64,000 nucleotides of DNA from an uncultured Gemmatimonadota bacterium. Its GTDB lineage: Bacteria; JAAXHH01. The notes beneath the pieces are model-generated. The model made no database searches. It saw only the letters and a program-made list of their open reading frames with translations, and was not told where the DNA came from. A program made the position numbers and the translations under genes. The stretch covers positions 704,001 to 768,000 of the forward strand of contig OX638340.1 of NCBI GenBank assembly GCA_951812955.1. Reading direction: 5' to 3'. This document shows positions 13,632 through 59,412 of this stretch, piece by piece (positions within the stretch are counted from its first letter, which is position 1; every line of letters begins with the position of its first letter).

Positions 13632-14588
13632 TCAATCGGTCCGGCTTCCCGGATCACCCGCGCCTTCGGCCTTTGCCCGTTCGTAGACGACGGCGGCCAC
13701 GGCCACATCTTCCACGGCCAGCCCCTGGGATTCGAAGAGGGTAATTTCATCGGAATCGGTACGGCCTGGCACGTGGCCGGCAACTACGTCGGCCAACTCG
13801 TGGACGCGGTCCCATTGAAGGAGTCCCTTTTCCACCGATTCGAGCAAGTCTCCGCACTCCACCTTCGCCTGCTCCCTGGAATCGACGGTGACCACGCCGG
13901 CTCGACTGACCGTCTCCGCATCGATTTCACTGCGTATGAGCGCGTTGGAACCAGCTGCGTTCACATGGGTGCCCGGTGCGAGCCAGGCGCCTTCCAGCAC
14001 CGGTCGCGCCGCGCTGGTGATCGTGATCGCCACTTCCACTTCTTCAACGCAGGCCCTGGCTGAATCAGCCGGGCGTACCGGCACTCCCAGGGCCTCGCTC
14101 ATCTCGCGGCAATACGCCTCTCTTCGCGTCCGATCCCGTCCATAGGCTTTAACACCCGTCACGTTGCGTACTTCACATACTGCAGCCAACTGGCTTCGGG
14201 CCTGCCATCCCGTTCCGATCACTCCCACGGTAGCCGCGTCATCCCGCGCCATGTACTTCGTCGCCACGCCGCTCGCCGCGCCCGTTCGCATCTGGCCGAG
14301 CCGGTCGGCCTCGATCGCAACCAGCGGTTCGCCCGTGTCGGCTTTGAACAATAAAACCAGGAATCTCGCACCGTGCCGCGTAGTCGTGTACGCTTTCAGT
14401 CCGGTGAGATTCAACTCCGGGATCCCCCCGGACATGACGTGGAGCGTATGGCCCGGAAGCCGTACCCTCGAACGCGGGATGTTGACCGCCGATCCAGCGC
14501 CGAGTCCACGGAACACTTCTTCGACCGCGCGGACTGCCGCGGCCATGGACAGTAAACCTCCTACTTCTTCCTCATTGATGTACAGCAT
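13632..14588 (-). CDS. Ornithine cyclodeaminase / mu-crystallin family protein
   Basis: Rossmann GVIGTGWQARSQL, NAAGSN, and an OCD-like N-terminus. GGAG RBS 7 nt before ATG 14588. Confidence 0.85.
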   Translation of the reverse strand: MLYINEEEVGGLLSMAAAVRAVEEVFRGLGAGSAVNIPRSRVRLPGHTLHVMSGGIPELNLTGLKAYTTTRHGARFLVLLFKADTGEPLVAIEADRLGQMRTGAASGVATKYMARDDAATVGVIGTGWQARSQLAAVCEVRNVTGVKAYGRDRTRREAYCREMSEALGVPVRPADSARACVEEVEVAITITSAARPVLEGAWLAPGTHVNAAGSNALIRSEIDAETVSRAGVVTVDSREQAKVECGDLLESVEKGLLQWDRVHELADVVAGHVPGRTDSDEITLFESQGLAVEDVAVAAVVYERAKAEGAGDPGSRTD

Positions 14589-14621
14589 GCTTGCGCTCCG
14601 ATCGGTTCGGTTAACGGTTCC

Positions 14622-14766
14622 GGGAACTTCGCTGCCGTCCGGGAACTCCGCTGCCGGACGTGAACTCCGCTGCCGTCCGGGAACTCCGCTGCCGTCCGGG
14701 AACTCCGCTGCCGGACGTGAACTACGCTGCCGTCAGGGCACTCCGCTGCCGGACGGCACTCCACTG
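14622..14766. repeat. Tandem array of about 8 copies of a 19-bp unit (GGGAACTCCGCTGCCGTCC alternating with GTGAACTCCGCTGCCGGAC)
   Basis: Direct head-to-tail repeats read from the sequence. They lie in the divergent intergenic region between the OCD-family gene (start 14588, minus) and the MFS gene (start 14942, plus). Confidence 0.85.
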
Positions 14767-14941
14767 GTGACAGCGCGTGTTCAAACCGGAGCGGCCATGC
14801 CTCGGGCGAACGGGCGGTGATCCCATACAGCAGGCCATGATATCCGGTCCTTCGACGGGGTGTCAAGGCCAATGTTACGGCTTAACCGCAGAGGACGCGC
14901 GTCTTGACAGTACCCGTGGGCGTGGTATCTTCAGCTTCGTC

Positions 14942-16177
14942 ATGCCTCTGCCCTTCCAAGCGTTTCGAGACCGGTTTCCCGCGCTCCGATACCGCGATTT
15001 CCGCCTCCTGTGGTCCGGTCAGATCGTTTCGCTTACCGGATCACGAATGCAGCAGACGGCCGTGCTGTGGCATATGTATTTGTTGACCGAGTCCGCGTAT
15101 GCCCTTGGTGCGATGGCAGTTATAAGACTCATACCCATCGTGATTCTTTCTCCGCTCGCCGGTGTGATCGCCGACACCCATGACCGCAAGCGCGTACTGC
15201 TCATCGCCCAGTGCGGCCTCGCCCTGATCAGTACGACGCTGGCGTGGATCACCTGGTCGAGCCAGGATTCCCCCACCATGTTGTATGTGATCACCGCCAT
15301 AAGCGCTGGGATCGGTTGCTTCAGTAGCCCGGCCAAAAACGCCATGGTGCCGAACCTGGTCGACCGGAGGCACCTGGCCAACGCCATGAGTATCAACATC
15401 ACCGCCTCCCATGTCGCATCGGTGACCGGGCCGGGCATTGCCGGCCTGATCCTGGCATCGGGCTCAATCGCGGCCGTTTACTGGATCAATACGGTTTCAT
15501 TTGTCTTCATGATTGTTCCAATCCTCATGTTGCGTTCCGGGCACCGCAGCATCGGCGGCGTGACACGGGTCAGCTTTGCGGCAGCGCTCGAGGGGCTGCG
15601 GTTCATAAGGCGTTCGTCCATTATACGCTCGGCGATGTTGCTGGACTTCACCGCTACGTTCTTTGCGTCCGCCACATCGTTGCTGCCGATTTTTGCCGTT
15701 GAAGTACTGGACGTCGGGGAACAGGGGTACGGCCTGCTTACGGCGGCCCCGGCGATCGGCGCCGTGCTGACCGGCGCAATCATGTCCACCTTCCCAGTGA
15801 TTTCGGGCCAGGGACGGCTGTTGTTCAAAGCGGTGGCGTGTTACGCGCTGGCCACCGTGGTCTTCGGCATATCATCAAGCTTCTGGCTCACCTTCGCCGC
15901 GCTGTTCCTGACTGGGGCGTTCGATACGGTAAGCATGGTGCTGCGCCATACCGTCATGCAGCTGTCGACCCCGGATGAATTGCGCGGCCGCATGACTTCG
16001 GTGAACATGATTTTCGTCATGGGCGGACCCCGGCTCGGCGAAGCAGAAGCCGGCCTGGTGGCGGGACTCGCGGGAGCCCCCTTCTCCGTAATTACAGGTG
16101 GGATCGGCTGCCTCGTGGCCGTCGCCGTCATAGCCTGGCGGTCTCCCACGTTGAGACGATACGACGGCCAACGATGA
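14942..16177 (+). CDS. MFS transporter
   Basis: 12-TM MFS pattern with N-terminal FRLLWSGQIVSLTGS. Internal ATG 14942 chosen; the ORF extension from 14777 reads through the tandem repeat. Confidence 0.8.
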   Translation: MPLPFQAFRDRFPALRYRDFRLLWSGQIVSLTGSRMQQTAVLWHMYLLTESAYALGAMAVIRLIPIVILSPLAGVIADTHDRKRVLLIAQCGLALISTTLAWITWSSQDSPTMLYVITAISAGIGCFSSPAKNAMVPNLVDRRHLANAMSINITASHVASVTGPGIAGLILASGSIAAVYWINTVSFVFMIVPILMLRSGHRSIGGVTRVSFAAALEGLRFIRRSSIIRSAMLLDFTATFFASATSLLPIFAVEVLDVGEQGYGLLTAAPAIGAVLTGAIMSTFPVISGQGRLLFKAVACYALATVVFGISSSFWLTFAALFLTGAFDTVSMVLRHTVMQLSTPDELRGRMTSVNMIFVMGGPRLGEAEAGLVAGLAGAPFSVITGGIGCLVAVAVIAWRSPTLRRYDGQR

Positions 16178-26641: not shown

Positions 26642-26790
26642 GGCCGGCGGCCCGGACAGTCAGGCCCAAACGGCTGCGAATGACGATCCAGGTGGTCCGG
26701 GCTGTCAGGCCCAAACGGCTGCGAATGACGATCCAGGTGGTCCGGGCTGTCAGGCCCAAACGGCTGCGGCTGGCGATCCAGGCGGTTTTA
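26642..26790. repeat. Tandem array of about 3.3 copies of a 45-bp unit (GTCAGGCCCAAACGGCTGCGAATGACGATCCAGGTGGTCCGGGCT)
   Basis: Two perfect copies plus one diverged copy and a partial copy, read from the sequence. They lie between the 3' end of the HtrA-like gene (26814) and the 5' end of the AKR gene (26489), both on the minus strand. Confidence 0.85.
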
Positions 26791-26813: not shown

Positions 26814-28118
26814 TTAGAATCCATTATCCCCGGGCAGGACCGCCGACCGCTGACCGATACGCCGCATGCGTTCATCCAGCAGCCTTTTGAGCTGATTCAA
26901 CTTGAGCCGGTGGGCCGCAAGTTCCATTTCGTGTTCCAGGATCATTTGCTGGATTAGATTGGGATCTTCACTGGGCAGGGGATCGTCCGCATCATCTTCG
27001 ACGAGTAAAGGCGAGGCGGGGGCATTCAGCAGTTTCGGCTGAGGCGCGAGAACCGTGTTCACCGTCTTTTCCGTATCTCCCCGCAGGTACGTGATTTCGA
27101 TCCGGGTGCCCACCGGTAGCGCGGTCACGAATTCTGCAAGGACAATGGGATGGTTCATCGGGACACCGTTTACAGCCTGCAGAATATCGCCCTTGCGCAG
27201 ACCGATCTTCATGGCCGGGCTATCGGGATATACATCAGAAACGACCATACCTTCTCCGGCGCCCAGCATGATATTGCGGTCGCCGCCGACATTGATGCTG
27301 TCCCAGATTTTCTCCACGTACACACCCAGCCAGCTCCGGCGGATCTCACCGTATTCGATGAGCTGTCTGGCGAAGGTCTTTACGCGGTTGATGGGAATGA
27401 CCGAAATCAATCCTCCGTCATTTCCTCCACTAAAGTGCTCCGACAGGGAGGTCTGTGCCCCCTGGGAATCGGCCACGAGACCGAGCAGGCGACCGTTCGT
27501 TGAAAACACGGCGCCGCCGGTGTAACCTCCGCCGACCACTGCGCTGACCTGCAACATGACATCTTCTTCCCTTACCCCGTTCACGATTCCCGTCGTCATC
27601 GAGGATGGAAATCCATGGGCGTTATTCAGCACAAGAACCCAGGATCCGGGACGGACGCCATCGGAATCACCGATGCGCGCGGTATGGACCGACACGCTGT
27701 CAACACGGATCACGGCGATATCGGAAAGCCTGTCCACCCCGACGAGTTCGCCGAGGCGGTACTGGCCATCCTGGAAATTCACCAGGATATCGTGGGCATG
27801 ATCCACGACGCCGGCCGTCGTGATGATGAAACCGTCTCTGTGGAGGACAACACCGGTCCCAATGGATCGTTCCCAGTCGGTGAAAGTCTGCCCGTTCACC
27901 GTATTGATGAATTTCCGCTGTACGATCACGCTGGCGATCGTCGGTTCCACGCGTTCAACGAGTCCGACGATCTCTTGTTCCAGGTTATGCAGGTACGGGG
28001 GGGCCTGCGCGTAAGCCCTGGAAGCGGCATAAAGGTGCCCCATACAGCACAGCAGCGCGGCACATATCAGGGGCCGAAAGTGTTCGGTTCCGAGTCGTAT
28101 GGGTTGAGAACCAAGCAT
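26814..28118 (-). CDS. HtrA/DegP-like S1C protease homolog with one PDZ domain; predicted nucleophile position is Thr (GYTGG) rather than Ser
   Basis: Signal peptide (AYA/QA), His (AGVVDHA), Asp (SDIAVIRVD), GGGYTGGAVF aligning to GNSGGPL, a PDZ domain (SWLGVYV...GDILQAVNG), and a C-terminal coiled-coil tail. It is the last gene of the ECF sigma / anti-sigma operon. Confidence 0.8.
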   Translation of the reverse strand: MLGSQPIRLGTEHFRPLICAALLCCMGHLYAASRAYAQAPPYLHNLEQEIVGLVERVEPTIASVIVQRKFINTVNGQTFTDWERSIGTGVVLHRDGFIITTAGVVDHAHDILVNFQDGQYRLGELVGVDRLSDIAVIRVDSVSVHTARIGDSDGVRPGSWVLVLNNAHGFPSSMTTGIVNGVREEDVMLQVSAVVGGGYTGGAVFSTNGRLLGLVADSQGAQTSLSEHFSGGNDGGLISVIPINRVKTFARQLIEYGEIRRSWLGVYVEKIWDSINVGGDRNIMLGAGEGMVVSDVYPDSPAMKIGLRKGDILQAVNGVPMNHPIVLAEFVTALPVGTRIEITYLRGDTEKTVNTVLAPQPKLLNAPASPLLVEDDADDPLPSEDPNLIQQMILEHEMELAAHRLKLNQLKRLLDERMRRIGQRSAVLPGDNGF

Positions 28119-28124
28119 GGTTGG

Positions 28125-28994
28125 TCAGAACGAGATACGGACGCGTCTGAGAGGGGTGGTCGGACCTGACGACCCTTGCGTGTCAGGCGAACCAGGCAAA
28201 CCATATGCTCGCTGTGTTGCGCGAAATTCGGTGGTTCCGACGGGTTGCAGACGTTCCTCCGTCGTCGGTTGATCTATATTGCCGCTGGTATCCAGGCCCC
28301 GGCCGAAGGACTCGCTGAACAGGGATGGATCGAGGCGCATGCCCGTACCTGCCGACACGAATCGGATCCCATGGGTTTTTGGTTCCATGGTCCTGACGGT
28401 CATGATGCCCGGTCTGTTGCCGGTGATTCCGGATGCGTTCAAAGAGAGACTGGATGCAGAAGAAGTGGGGAGAATGGATGCCTGTTCCTGGCTCAGTGCC
28501 GGCTTTACCGCCATGTACGGCGCGAGTTCTCTTTCTAGGGGAAAGGGCGAAATCGGATCGGGGGGTGCAAGTTCGGGTTCAACGGGCGTCGGCAGGGAAA
28601 AGGCCATGGGAGGGGACGGAGACGATTCGGACCGCCCCGTAGGCGCGGACAGTTCCCAGAATCCGCCGATCACGGTTATGGTAAGGATCAGGCTGGTCGC
28701 AAATACCAGTTGAACGGGACGCTGCCGGCTGTGTTCGCCCAGTTCGGCAAAAGCCCCCGATACGCGCCTCCACCAGGAAGCGGCGTACAGTTCACGGGCA
28801 ATTTCCAGGTTCAGCAGATTACCGAGTCGATGATCGAATCCTGGTTGAGGGGATACGGCGGGCAGACTCTTCACGGCCTGTATGGAGCTTTCCATGTCAT
28901 CAATCTTGAGCCGGCACCGTGGACATCCGTTCAGGTGAAACCGTAGTTCGTCTTCGGTTGCCTTCGACAACTGACCGTCCAGGTAGTCGGACAT
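28125..28994 (-). CDS. Anti-sigma factor, zf-HC2 (putative zinc-finger) type, single-pass membrane protein
   Basis: MSDYLDGQLS...HLNGCPRCR motif, one TM (LVFATSLILTITVIGGFW), and a Pro-rich periplasmic tail. It lies immediately downstream of the ECF sigma gene. The ORF is open to 29057, so the start is ambiguous. Confidence 0.65.
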   Translation of the reverse strand: MSDYLDGQLSKATEDELRFHLNGCPRCRLKIDDMESSIQAVKSLPAVSPQPGFDHRLGNLLNLEIARELYAASWWRRVSGAFAELGEHSRQRPVQLVFATSLILTITVIGGFWELSAPTGRSESSPSPPMAFSLPTPVEPELAPPDPISPFPLERELAPYMAVKPALSQEQASILPTSSASSLSLNASGITGNRPGIMTVRTMEPKTHGIRFVSAGTGMRLDPSLFSESFGRGLDTSGNIDQPTTEERLQPVGTTEFRATQRAYGLPGSPDTQGSSGPTTPLRRVRISF

Positions 28995-29035
28995 CTTCCG
29001 CTCGTAACCACTACAGTTCAAAATATCCTTCCTCC

Positions 29036-29683
29036 TCAAAGTATCTCTACCTGCCACTGCCTGAGCATTTCCTGCAGTCTCAGCCGGCCCCGGTTGACCC
29101 GCGACTTGACGGTTCCGGTCGGACAGTGCAGTATCTCGCCGATCTGTTCGTAAGACAGTTCTTCAATATCGCGCAGCACGATCACGGATTTGTATTTCTC
29201 CGGCAGTTGATCGATCGCGTGCTGGATGGCCCTGCCCAGTTCATTCTGCTCCAGGTGATCGCCAGGCCCCGCGTTCTTGTCCGGCAGATCGATTCCTTCC
29301 CTGGTGCTGTTCTCGTGGGGCGACGCGTTCAGGGAGAAGAACTGGCGGCGTTTTCGCTTGCGCAACTCGCTCCGGGCGAGATTGAGCGCGATGGTATAAA
29401 TCCAGGTGGAAAGATTGGAGATCGCCTTGTAGTTGTGGCGGTTCCGGTAGACCCTGAGAAACGTCTCCTGCACCAGGTCTTCCGCGCACTCCATATTGTG
29501 GACCATGCGATAAATGCAATTATACAACCTGGTACGGTATCTTCCGACGATAACTTCGAAAGCGCGCGCATCCTCCCGTTGAACCCGGATGAAAAGCGCT
29601 TCATCCGACAGGGTCAATTCGTCGAGCACCCCTGATTCGATATCGGAGACCTGTACCGCGTTTATATAGGTGTTGTCAGCCAT
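29036..29683 (-). CDS. RNA polymerase sigma-70 factor, ECF subfamily
   Basis: Region 2 (FEVIVGRYRTRLYNCIYRMVHNMECAEDLVQETFLRVY) and region 4 (VIVLRDIEELSYEQIGEILHCPTGTVKSRV). ATG 29683 preceded by GGGAGAGAAG; the alternative ATG is 29698. Confidence 0.85.
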   Translation of the reverse strand: MADNTYINAVQVSDIESGVLDELTLSDEALFIRVQREDARAFEVIVGRYRTRLYNCIYRMVHNMECAEDLVQETFLRVYRNRHNYKAISNLSTWIYTIALNLARSELRKRKRRQFFSLNASPHENSTREGIDLPDKNAGPGDHLEQNELGRAIQHAIDQLPEKYKSVIVLRDIEELSYEQIGEILHCPTGTVKSRVNRGRLRLQEMLRQWQVEIL

Positions 29684-29699
29684 TTTCTTCTCTCCCATA

Positions 29700-56910: not shown

Positions 56911-59181
56911 TTAGGACATTGCTTTCGCGGAGAAAATCCTCTCCACGCGATTGCGGATCCGGCCGGCCAGTCCGTTTCCATGGGGCAGCGCGACTTCGTG
57001 ATCGGCCGGGCCACCATCTCCGGCAATCCGTGCCGAGTTCCCCCCGGCTCGCGTACCCGAAAGCCAGTATTCTGCCAGCATGAGCGCCATCACCAGGACG
57101 ATCAGAGATTTCCAGATTTCATATCTGCCCGTGGCGCTGAAGGTCCCGCCGCGGAGGACGTCCGGGGAGCCGTCCAGGTCCTTCAGGACAAGATACGTGC
57201 CGTATCCGAGAAATCCGGCCGCCCGTACCGGGGTGAATCGAGCCAGGTCCGATTCCCGCGTGTCCGTGTTTACCGCGAACGCCTGCACGACGGCGTCACC
57301 GTCCCGCAGCGTATACACGCCGGGTTGTTTCGCATCCGGAACTTCCACCGTTATTCCGCTCCGGCCGATACGCGAATTGACCGTCTCCGAACGGCCCGTG
57401 GGATACTCCAGGTTGAGGTCGGCGTTCGCCGGAACGCCGATCAACGGCTGCACCACCGGGTGACCGGCCAGAAATCCTCCATCGGCAACCGTCACGGCGG
57501 GATGTAGATACCTGACGCCTCGATGCATGAACGGTACAAAAGCGCTTCTCAATGCCAGGTCGCTCCAACCGGTGTTCACGTCTGAAGCGACCAGAAGCGC
57601 CCTCCCGCTGCCGGATCGGCCTTCGAGAATCGCCGGCGTGCCGTCCATGAACCGGGCGATCACCCGCGCGCCGCGGTCCGCCTCCACGGCATAGGAAGCA
57701 TAGAACCGCACCGCGCCGGTCGACATCGATTCTGCGGAACGGCCATCGAAGCGGAAAACCGGATGCTCGTAATCGACCTGGTCAATCCGGTGAAAGGACG
57801 TCTTCCGGTCCGGCATCCCCCTTCGAGCCGTAATCGAGCATCCGAAGACATCAGAAAAAAACCCGTGTCTATAAACCGCCGGGGCCACCCCTTCTCCGAG
57901 AAATACCAGGACCCCGCCACCGGAGGAAATGTAACGCTCCATGCTAGCAAGCCGCGCCGGCGTCAGTTCCATTCCTCCATCCACGATCAGTACGCCCGAT
58001 TCGTACAAATCGCTATTCAACACGTCGGCGGATGCAGTCCGCAGGTCCACGGGCGTGACCAATCCGCCCGACGGCTTCAGCACCTGCTCGATGAAGTACC
58101 TGGATTCGGTCAGTCCAACGGCGGTAACGCCAAACGCTTCCGGGACATTGAGGGTGAAATACCGCCGATTGTCTGCTGCGAGGTCATCTTCGTCCAGTTC
58201 CACATAACCGGAATACCGGCCCGGGTTGTCGATGACGACATTGAACTGAACTGAACCCGTTCCGCCCGTCTCGGCAGTAACCTGGCGGCTGTCACGCGTC
58301 TCGCCGTTTATGACGAGACGGACTTCCCTGGTCCGACTGGTCTGCCCGGTCCGACTGGTCTGCCCGGTGCGCGCCGATGCCTCGTTCCGGCTGGTAAAAG
58401 TCGCGACAAACTGCTCCGGCTGATTGCGGATCAGCAGGCCCTCGCTTACGGAAACTGCGTCGATACTTGCGTTGTCCACGTCCCTTGCCGCGTAGGGATA
58501 CAGGTAAATAGGCGTATGCGGTTCCGATTGCGCTGTCGAGTCGGTTTCCGCCATATCCTGCCAGTCGGTTCGCTGTAAATCGGACAGCAGGTGGATTTCC
58601 TTGTTCGCAGAAACAACGCCGGCCAGTTTTAGCCGCGCGAGACTCAGGGCGCCGGCGATATCCCCCGTTCTTTCCGATACTTCCGCTTCCGCCAGGCGCG
58701 CTCTGAGCACTTCCTTCCGGGCCGTGGGAACTTGCGGCATGGTCTCGGGCGGCATGGCCGACAGAATGAGCAGGCCCTCGTCGCCTTGCCGCATCCTGTC
58801 GATAATTCGGCCGGCCTCGGCCCTGGCAGCGGCAAATGGCGTATCTCCGTAGCGTCCGGCACCCATGCTGTACGAATTGTCCAGCACAATGGTATAGACC
58901 GTCCGCTGCTCCAAACCGCTGCCGAACATGGCGCCCGCCAGGCCTTCAAGAACCGGCCTGGCGAAAGCCAGCACCAGAAACAGAATGATCAGGGTGCGAA
59001 GCAATAGAAGCAGAAGTTCCCGGAGTCTCAGGGCCCGGGATCGTTGCAGGTGATGACCCCTGATGAAAATCACGGAGCTGAAGTCGACGGTGGAGACCCG
59101 CTGGCGATGAAACAGGTGCATGATCAGCGGAACGGCGACCGCTACGAGTCCAAACAGCATCAGCGCGTTCAGAAAGGTCAT
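56911..59181 (-). CDS. BatA/two-anchor N-terminal domain plus von Willebrand factor A domain membrane protein
   Basis: MTFLNALMLFGLVAVAVPLIMHLF (aerotolerance-regulator N-terminal double-TM domain), VWA MIDAS (TIVLDNSYSMG), and a C-terminal TM (IWKSLIVLVMALMLAEYWL). ATG 59181 preceded by GGAGGAAG. Confidence 0.75.
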   Translation of the reverse strand: MTFLNALMLFGLVAVAVPLIMHLFHRQRVSTVDFSSVIFIRGHHLQRSRALRLRELLLLLLRTLIILFLVLAFARPVLEGLAGAMFGSGLEQRTVYTIVLDNSYSMGAGRYGDTPFAAARAEAGRIIDRMRQGDEGLLILSAMPPETMPQVPTARKEVLRARLAEAEVSERTGDIAGALSLARLKLAGVVSANKEIHLLSDLQRTDWQDMAETDSTAQSEPHTPIYLYPYAARDVDNASIDAVSVSEGLLIRNQPEQFVATFTSRNEASARTGQTSRTGQTSRTREVRLVINGETRDSRQVTAETGGTGSVQFNVVIDNPGRYSGYVELDEDDLAADNRRYFTLNVPEAFGVTAVGLTESRYFIEQVLKPSGGLVTPVDLRTASADVLNSDLYESGVLIVDGGMELTPARLASMERYISSGGGVLVFLGEGVAPAVYRHGFFSDVFGCSITARRGMPDRKTSFHRIDQVDYEHPVFRFDGRSAESMSTGAVRFYASYAVEADRGARVIARFMDGTPAILEGRSGSGRALLVASDVNTGWSDLALRSAFVPFMHRGVRYLHPAVTVADGGFLAGHPVVQPLIGVPANADLNLEYPTGRSETVNSRIGRSGITVEVPDAKQPGVYTLRDGDAVVQAFAVNTDTRESDLARFTPVRAAGFLGYGTYLVLKDLDGSPDVLRGGTFSATGRYEIWKSLIVLVMALMLAEYWLSGTRAGGNSARIAGDGGPADHEVALPHGNGLAGRIRNRVERIFSAKAMS
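58331..58366 (-). repeat. In-frame tandem duplication of an 18-bp unit (GGTCCGACTGGTCTGCCC x2 plus a partial copy) inside the BatA/VWA gene
   Basis: Read from the sequence. It encodes RTGQTSRTGQTSRT in the protein's linker region. Confidence 0.7.
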
Positions 59182-59412
59182 TCGACTTCCTCCACGTGGG
59201 TTCATTAATATACCCCCGGCACCTTCGCTCGTAAAGCGGTATCATCGGCTGGCCGGAGGCTGCTTGTGCGGGAATCAGCGGCACATTACAGGCGGGCGCG
59301 GGCCGGCCGGATGGCGTGTTCAGGGTCGATTTTCCTTGACACACCGGTCGGCTGGGGGTATCGTATTTCTACTATTCGGTCAAACCCGCTGGCAACCCCA
59401 GAAGGAGCGTTT

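Follow-up and report, generated by a model that had tools for sequence, protein, structure and literature searches.

The tandem array that lies between an ornithine cyclodeaminase (OCD)/mu-crystallin family gene and a divergent MFS_3 family transporter gene of an uncultivated, sponge-associated member of the Gemmatimonadota is likely to be a lineage-specific, strain-variable minisatellite (a variable-number tandem repeat, VNTR), situated in the leader of the OCD gene and close to neutral in its effects. The array was analysed within a 64-kb stretch of DNA, referred to here as the window. Its origin may be sought in a sequence close to CGGCAKCGGARTYCCCGGAA, present once in some relatives just upstream of the OCD Shine-Dalgarno (SD) sequence, which slipped-strand mispairing or unequal recombination would have multiplied into a head-to-tail series within a single sub-clade of the sponge-associated Gemmatimonadota. 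Concerted evolution would then have homogenised the copies within each lineage, with gains and losses of whole 19-bp units and, once, of a 57-bp three-unit block. Since it stands downstream of a conserved sigma-70-like promoter, the array probably belongs to a long transcribed 5' leader of OCD. A dedicated function is improbable; the most to be expected is that leader length or structure might shift OCD expression quantitatively.

Seven head-to-tail 19-bp units occupy positions 14619-14751, as found with Tandem Repeats Finder, a repeat search and reading of the sequence. Tandem Repeats Finder called a 19-bp period over this interval (7.0 copies, 85% matches, score 196) and also a 57-bp period (2.3 copies, 94% matches, score 238). 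In the register TCCGGGAACTCCGCTGCCG, the repeat search placed unit starts at 14619, 14638, 14657, 14676, 14695, 14714 and 14733, in exact 19-bp steps. The preliminary description of this DNA had reported eight tandem repeats in which two 19-mers alternate; the array is real and has seven good units, the eighth is degenerate, and in place of strict alternation the order on the plus strand is A' A B A A B X (B'). This order amounts to a 57-bp AAB super-repeat, which implies that the most recent duplication copied three units (57 bp) together. The units are GC-rich and their junctions are partly palindromic. They are directly adjacent, without spacers, which sets them apart from CRISPR arrays, and a head-to-tail unit within the ~10-100 bp range, repeated far above chance, is one of the two features that define a minisatellite. 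Coordinates, unit sequences and related loci are collected in Table 1.

Table 1. Features of the window around the array, copy number at orthologous loci, and unrelated tandem arrays in the same gene cluster of relatives.
Feature	Locus	Position	Strand	Description
Seven tandem 19-bp units	Window	14619-14751	-	OCD sense strand, 5' to 3': CGGCAGCGGAGTGCCCTGA, CGGCAGCGTAGTTCACGTC, CGGCAGCGGAGTTCCCGGA x2, CGGCAGCGGAGTTCACGTC, CGGCAGCGGAGTTCCCGGA, CGGCAGCGAAGTTCCCGGA
Degenerate distal eighth unit	Window	14752-14770	-	Plus strand GACGGCACTCCACTGGTGA; homologous to the degenerate distal unit in L001/L129
OCD/mu-crystallin family gene	Window	13632-14588	-	318 aa, downstream of array; Pfam PF02423, E 3.2e-61
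MFS_3 family transporter gene	Window	14942-16177	+	Divergent; Pfam PF05977, E 6e-53; ATG 14942 conserved in alignment
Sigma-70-like promoter-like element facing OCD	Window	14837-14866	-	TTGACA 14866-14861, 18-nt spacer, TATCAT 14842-14837; 11/12 consensus positions
Sigma-70-like promoter-like element facing MFS	Window	14904-14931	+	TTGACA 14904-14909, 16-nt spacer, TATCTT 14926-14931, TG extension; 10/12 consensus positions
Inferred OCD 5' leader	Window	14589-14836	-	248 nt, from end of -10 hexamer to base before ATG; placed by position relative to the conserved promoter; contains array
Orthologous array	L182			98.6% DNA identity to window over 7.85 kb; 6+1 units, one A unit fewer, point changes in two units
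Orthologous array	L129			Sister lineage, 93% OCD identity; 5 perfect + 1 degenerate unit of homogenised variant CGGCAGCGCAGTTCCCGGC
Orthologous array	L001, L002			93% OCD identity, flanks near-identical to L129; 3+1 units of variant CGGCAGCGCAGTTCCCGGC
Orthologous array	L003 (Logan contig)			OCD protein same as L001 (P0001); contig begins inside repeat
Single copy	L004			88% identity; single 19-mer copy and three copies of 12-bp sub-repeat GAGGACGGCAGC
No 19-bp array	L005, L006, L127, L173, L176			83-87% identity; one recognisable copy kept in some
Short leader	L183			83% identity; -10 hexamer to ATG only 45 nt
17 bp x4.1 array	L178, L179, L180	1259-1327		Between divergent promoters
15 bp x6.3 array	L178, L179, L180	1382-1473		GGCTTCCGGGCACGC; in OCD leader
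25 bp x2.6 array	L004	4938-5002		Between convergent OCD and HpcH
32 bp x ~4 array	L173	2410-2706		Between convergent OCD and HpcH
9 bp x7.6 array	L006	1584-1651		Between SBP and amidohydrolase

Within the window the repeat is confined to this array. The 14-mer core GAACTCCGCTGCCG, allowing up to two mismatches, has seven matches in 64 kb, all of them inside the array (1.05 expected; 0 of 100 shuffles reached seven), and the full 19-mer with up to three mismatches has six, again all inside it, against 0.06 expected. It is hardly credible that the array represents a cluster of dispersed REP/BIME-like elements, as had been considered at the outset, or an artefact of assembly. A GC-rich unit with partly palindromic junctions would suit the former, and a length of 133-152 bp, near that of short reads, would suit the latter in so far as the exact copy number could be misassembled. 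Dispersal is contradicted by the absence of any copy outside the array within 64 kb at three mismatches, and a scan of viral contigs returned nothing similar to the unit. The 18-mer CGGCAGCGNAGTTCCCGG, scanned across species-representative genomes, hit at least 120 loci, with single chance matches in unrelated taxa; among the matches listed, more than one match occurred only at the orthologous locus of the related MAG JAPOOT01, with no second JAPOOT01 contig, and the scan says little on genome-wide dispersal. An artefact is contradicted by five independent assemblies besides the window (L001, L002, L003, L129 and L182) that carry the array at the same position; one of these contigs breaks inside the repeat, as is expected of a true repeat in the reads.

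Copy number differs among relatives by whole units, and of the phase-variable VNTR proposed in the preliminary description, the variable copy number is borne out. The window carries 7+1 units (full plus degenerate) versus 6+1 in its closest relative (L182), and the sister lineage carries 5+1 in one assembly (L129) versus 3+1 in two others (L001/L002), counts that come from consensus metagenome assemblies in which the longest arrays may be off by one unit. Farther out in the clade there is no 19-bp array. Such a distribution is what one would expect of a VNTR that arose when a sequence already in place was amplified and then underwent concerted evolution within lineages. The units of the two array-bearing lineages also differ in motif content, with GGAG and CCGGA in the window and GCAG and CCGGC in the sister lineage, which argues against SD decoys, GGA-type protein-binding sites and a fixed operator. 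The alleles differ in length by 19 or 38 bp, so no reading frame through the array would be kept from one to another, in agreement with the earlier view that open reading frames crossing it are artefactual.

The genes on either side of the array are shared widely among the relatives. Pfam annotation agrees with the OCD and MFS families assigned initially, and the spacing first given is right, with the array ~34 nt away from the OCD ATG at one end and ~175 nt away from the MFS ATG at the other. The neighbourhood also encodes an amidohydrolase_2, an SBP_bac_5 protein, an HpcH/HpaI aldolase, two class-V aminotransferases and a BrkB-like protein, and the gene order SBP, amidohydrolase, MFS / OCD / HpcH / aminotransferases is common to all longer loci. 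The closest homologue of the window OCD, 93% identical, belongs to an annotated Gemmatimonadetes MAG (isolate APA_bin_41). Sample names suggest that the related contigs come from sponge metagenomes, and this attribution is a reading of those names alone.

The array had been described as part of a divergent promoter region, but the conserved sequence elements of the spacer put it outside the interval between the two promoters. A consensus scan of 14400-15100 yielded exactly two sigma-70-like sites, against 0.1 expected, and no promoter-like hexamers inside the array. The two sites are arranged back to back over 14837-14931, with the array downstream of the one that faces OCD. That element is kept in 13 of the 13 orthologous loci that include the region, where it forms invariant alignment columns. 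The element facing MFS is likewise conserved in orthologous loci, and its -10 hexamer TATCTT stops 10 nt before ATG 14942, which implies a leaderless or nearly leaderless MFS mRNA; every orthologous locus shares this arrangement. In a 12-sequence alignment of orthologous spacers, the only conserved blocks are the two promoter-like elements and the SD/start region. Position relative to these hexamers would put the OCD transcription start near 14830, and because the array is downstream of conserved promoter-like hexamers facing OCD, it probably lies within the untranslated 5' leader of the OCD mRNA, which would run past the array to the SD sequence GGAG at 14596-14599. Across the clade, 45 to 248 nt separate the -10 hexamer from the ATG (45 to 229 nt in the relatives), and the leader of only 45 nt in L183 indicates that the array region is dispensable for the OCD gene.

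A structured regulatory leader finds little in its favour. An Rfam search of the OCD leader gave no match at E up to 10, and its predicted folding energy of -107.6 kcal/mol compares with a shuffled mean of -103.7 (z = -0.81), so its stability is not unusual. The leader is also unconserved and varies between 45 and 248 nt among loci, which is unlike a riboswitch.

Other elements within the leader were considered in their own right and set aside. An SD decoy or CsrA site was rejected on the grounds that the GGAG and GGA motifs of the unit are lost in the sister lineage (GCAG, CCGGC). A coding or upstream open reading frame (uORF) interpretation was also rejected, as alleles differ by 19 or 38 bp and the open reading frames are out of frame with OCD. 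An ATG that overlaps the OCD -10 hexamer was discounted as a uORF start, for it would be upstream of the inferred transcription start.

Direct repeats at a fixed 19-bp spacing could also be taken for an operator- or iteron-like array of binding sites, where cooperative binding of a repressor or activator would control OCD and possibly MFS; the preliminary description had raised transcription-factor sites as one option. We regard this as very unlikely. The promoter-proximal unit and its flank do form a palindrome (GTTCC-C-GGAAC), and a regulator sitting downstream of the promoter could block the passage of polymerase, but most orthologous loci in which the same genes and promoters are conserved lack a recognisable unit (L005, L006, L173, L176, L178 and L183), and L183 does without the region. 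The array is outside both promoters, its 19-bp spacing is out of helical phase and its copy number varies freely. Domain annotation of the window found no transcription-factor gene within ~13 kb of the array; the nearest regulator genes encode an ECF sigma factor (29036-29698) and a zf-HC2 protein (28125-29057), presumably its anti-sigma factor.

Separately from the array, sequence conservation around the OCD -10 hexamer (14837-14851, CCGGATATCATGGC) extends well beyond the hexamer itself in nearly all orthologous loci. This segment is partly palindromic (inverted repeat I8) and could be an operator overlapping the OCD promoter. If any regulator site exists at this locus, CCGGATATCATGGC is a better candidate for it than the array.

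The junctions between units carry sequence symmetries of their own. The 10-mer at 14749-14758, at the boundary of units 7 and 8, is the perfect reverse complement of the A-unit-junction 10-mer (I6/I7); the degenerate distal unit has the junction CCGTCCGG, the exact reverse complement of the A junction CCGGACGG. Both internal B junctions have the sequence ACGTCCGG, which can pair with the A junction over 7 bp. In the sister lineage (L129, L001/L002) the palindrome CCGGCCGG stands at every unit junction. Complementary A/B junctions and palindromic junctions alike create a potential for 7-10-bp hairpins between array units, and such hairpins could matter structurally. The complementarity itself may be the footprint of template switching within a quasi-palindrome.

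Hairpin potential of this kind is among the features that would suit a contingency-type role, in which gain or loss of units makes the leader longer or shorter, changes its structure or moves the promoter relative to the ribosome-binding site. Expression of the OCD operon would then vary heritably and reversibly within a population of symbionts, in the manner of the promoter tandem repeats of Mycobacterium tuberculosis. Such an evolvable expression tuner is, in our judgement, unlikely. Copy number does differ between near-identical strains, at least three unrelated arrays arose in the same ~300-bp spacer of other lineages, and there is precedent for repeats of this sort as expression switches (PMC12817950). 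When synthetic alleles with between 0 and 15 units are modelled, the unpaired probability predicted for the AUG climbs from 0.04 to ~0.35, so that predicted start-codon accessibility grows with unit number, a weak trend that belongs to the model only. Against this, predicted SD accessibility is flat over the same alleles (unpaired probability 0.00-0.06) and the leader is no more stable than its shuffles. The unit has no promoter element, unlike the mycobacterial repeats, and its motif content differs between the two array-bearing lineages. The array at 14619-14770 is outside both promoter-like elements and both open reading frames, neither between -35 and -10 hexamers nor within a coding sequence, which argues against classic promoter-spacing phase variation. 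Finally, convergent, promoter-free spacers of the same cluster carry arrays too, as would be expected from mutational bias.

Arrays of unrelated sequence recur in this spacer, the one feature of the locus that merits attention genome-wide. In the MFS-OCD spacer of L178-L180 (82% OCD identity) there are two tandem arrays unrelated to the 19-mer (Table 1), and in the same spacer of L181 there are two more, 17 bp x3 and 26 bp x2.3, also unrelated to the window unit. OCD identity to the window is 83% for both L181 and L127, whose spacers closely resemble each other, and the 17-bp leader repeat GGAGCGGGTCTGTCGCC has one copy more in L181 (289-339) than in L127 (~826-856, counted by eye). This 17-bp difference is a second case of VNTR behaviour in an OCD leader, with a different unit. 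Neighbouring spacers in L173, L004 and L006 contain further lineage-specific arrays whose units are likewise unrelated to the 19-mer. These observations support the view that GC-rich spacers of the cluster are locally prone to minisatellite formation, and the unrelated arrays in one and the same spacer point to a mutational hotspot. Recurrence of arrays in the OCD spacer across lineages could instead reflect selection for variability. We think it quite unlikely that selection has made the OCD leader, or MFS-OCD spacer, of this sponge-symbiont clade a place where minisatellites repeatedly arise and provide heritable, reversible 5'-UTR tuning of an amino-acid catabolic operon; were this true, the contingency mechanism would act on the leader, through its length or its A/B hairpin content, and not on the promoter or an open reading frame. 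Genome-wide richness in tandem repeats was entertained as a separate explanation and dropped, as the window contains three arrays with a period of at least 9 and a score of at least 75 (4.7 per 100 kb) versus 3.3 per 100 kb in a control of 885 kb of unrelated loci, namely the 120 loci from the 18-mer scan.

As a minisatellite, the array resembles bacterial VNTRs such as the MIRU-VNTR loci of M. tuberculosis and other MLVA markers in its intergenic, head-to-tail units of at least 10 bp, and in its whole-unit differences between close strains, variant units, higher-order blocks and within-lineage homogenisation. It departs from MIRUs, which are 40-100 bp long and stand between operon genes, in that its unit is 19 bp, it occupies a single locus without a dispersed family, it lies in an inferred 5' leader and its host is an uncultivated sponge-associated member of the Gemmatimonadota. 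The phase-variable promoter tandem repeats of M. tuberculosis (lpdA, efpA and dop) contain the promoter within the repeated unit, so that copy number equals promoter dosage (PMC12817950). The array shares with them (PMC12817950) a position upstream of a metabolic gene, copy number that varies among isolates and a proposed effect on expression of the downstream gene. In contrast to them, its unit of 19 bp leaves no room for -35 and -10 hexamers plus the spacer between them, lacks promoter-like hexamers and stands downstream of a single conserved promoter. Simple sequence repeat (SSR) contingency loci of Neisseria, Haemophilus and Campylobacter have 1-9-bp units that lie between the -35 and -10 hexamers or within an open reading frame and produce ON/OFF switching (PMC6321876). 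The array has in common with them a slippage-prone repeat near a gene start and a potential for heritable variation, but its 19-bp units are outside promoter hexamers and open reading frames. With REP/BIME elements it shares short, GC-rich units and partial dyad symmetry, and with plasmid iterons it shares direct repeats of ~19-22 bp; unlike the former it has no dispersed copies in the 64 kb, and unlike the latter it has no replication or regulator gene nearby and a unit that is unconserved in orthologous loci.

Arrays of this type could serve as VNTR strain markers that separate closely related, uncultivated sponge-associated Gemmatimonadota. They also call for caution, as the locus breaks or mis-sizes short-read assemblies. 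If copy number alters expression of the OCD operon, tuning by repeats would extend from promoters and open reading frames to 5' leaders, and from pathogens to symbionts.

Two further repeats in the window are separate from the OCD locus. A second intergenic array at 26652-26786 (45 bp x3.0, 93% matches, score 228 in Tandem Repeats Finder) is upstream of an aldo/keto reductase gene on the minus strand (probable ATG 26489), and on its other flank a gene for a trypsin/PDZ (HtrA-like) peptidase (26814-28118, minus strand) comes to its stop. A perfect 18-bp x2.2 repeat, GGTCCGACTGGTCTGCCC, at 58330-58368 falls within a 764-aa BatA/VWA-domain open reading frame (56911-59205, minus strand), where it is probably a short, in-frame coding repeat.
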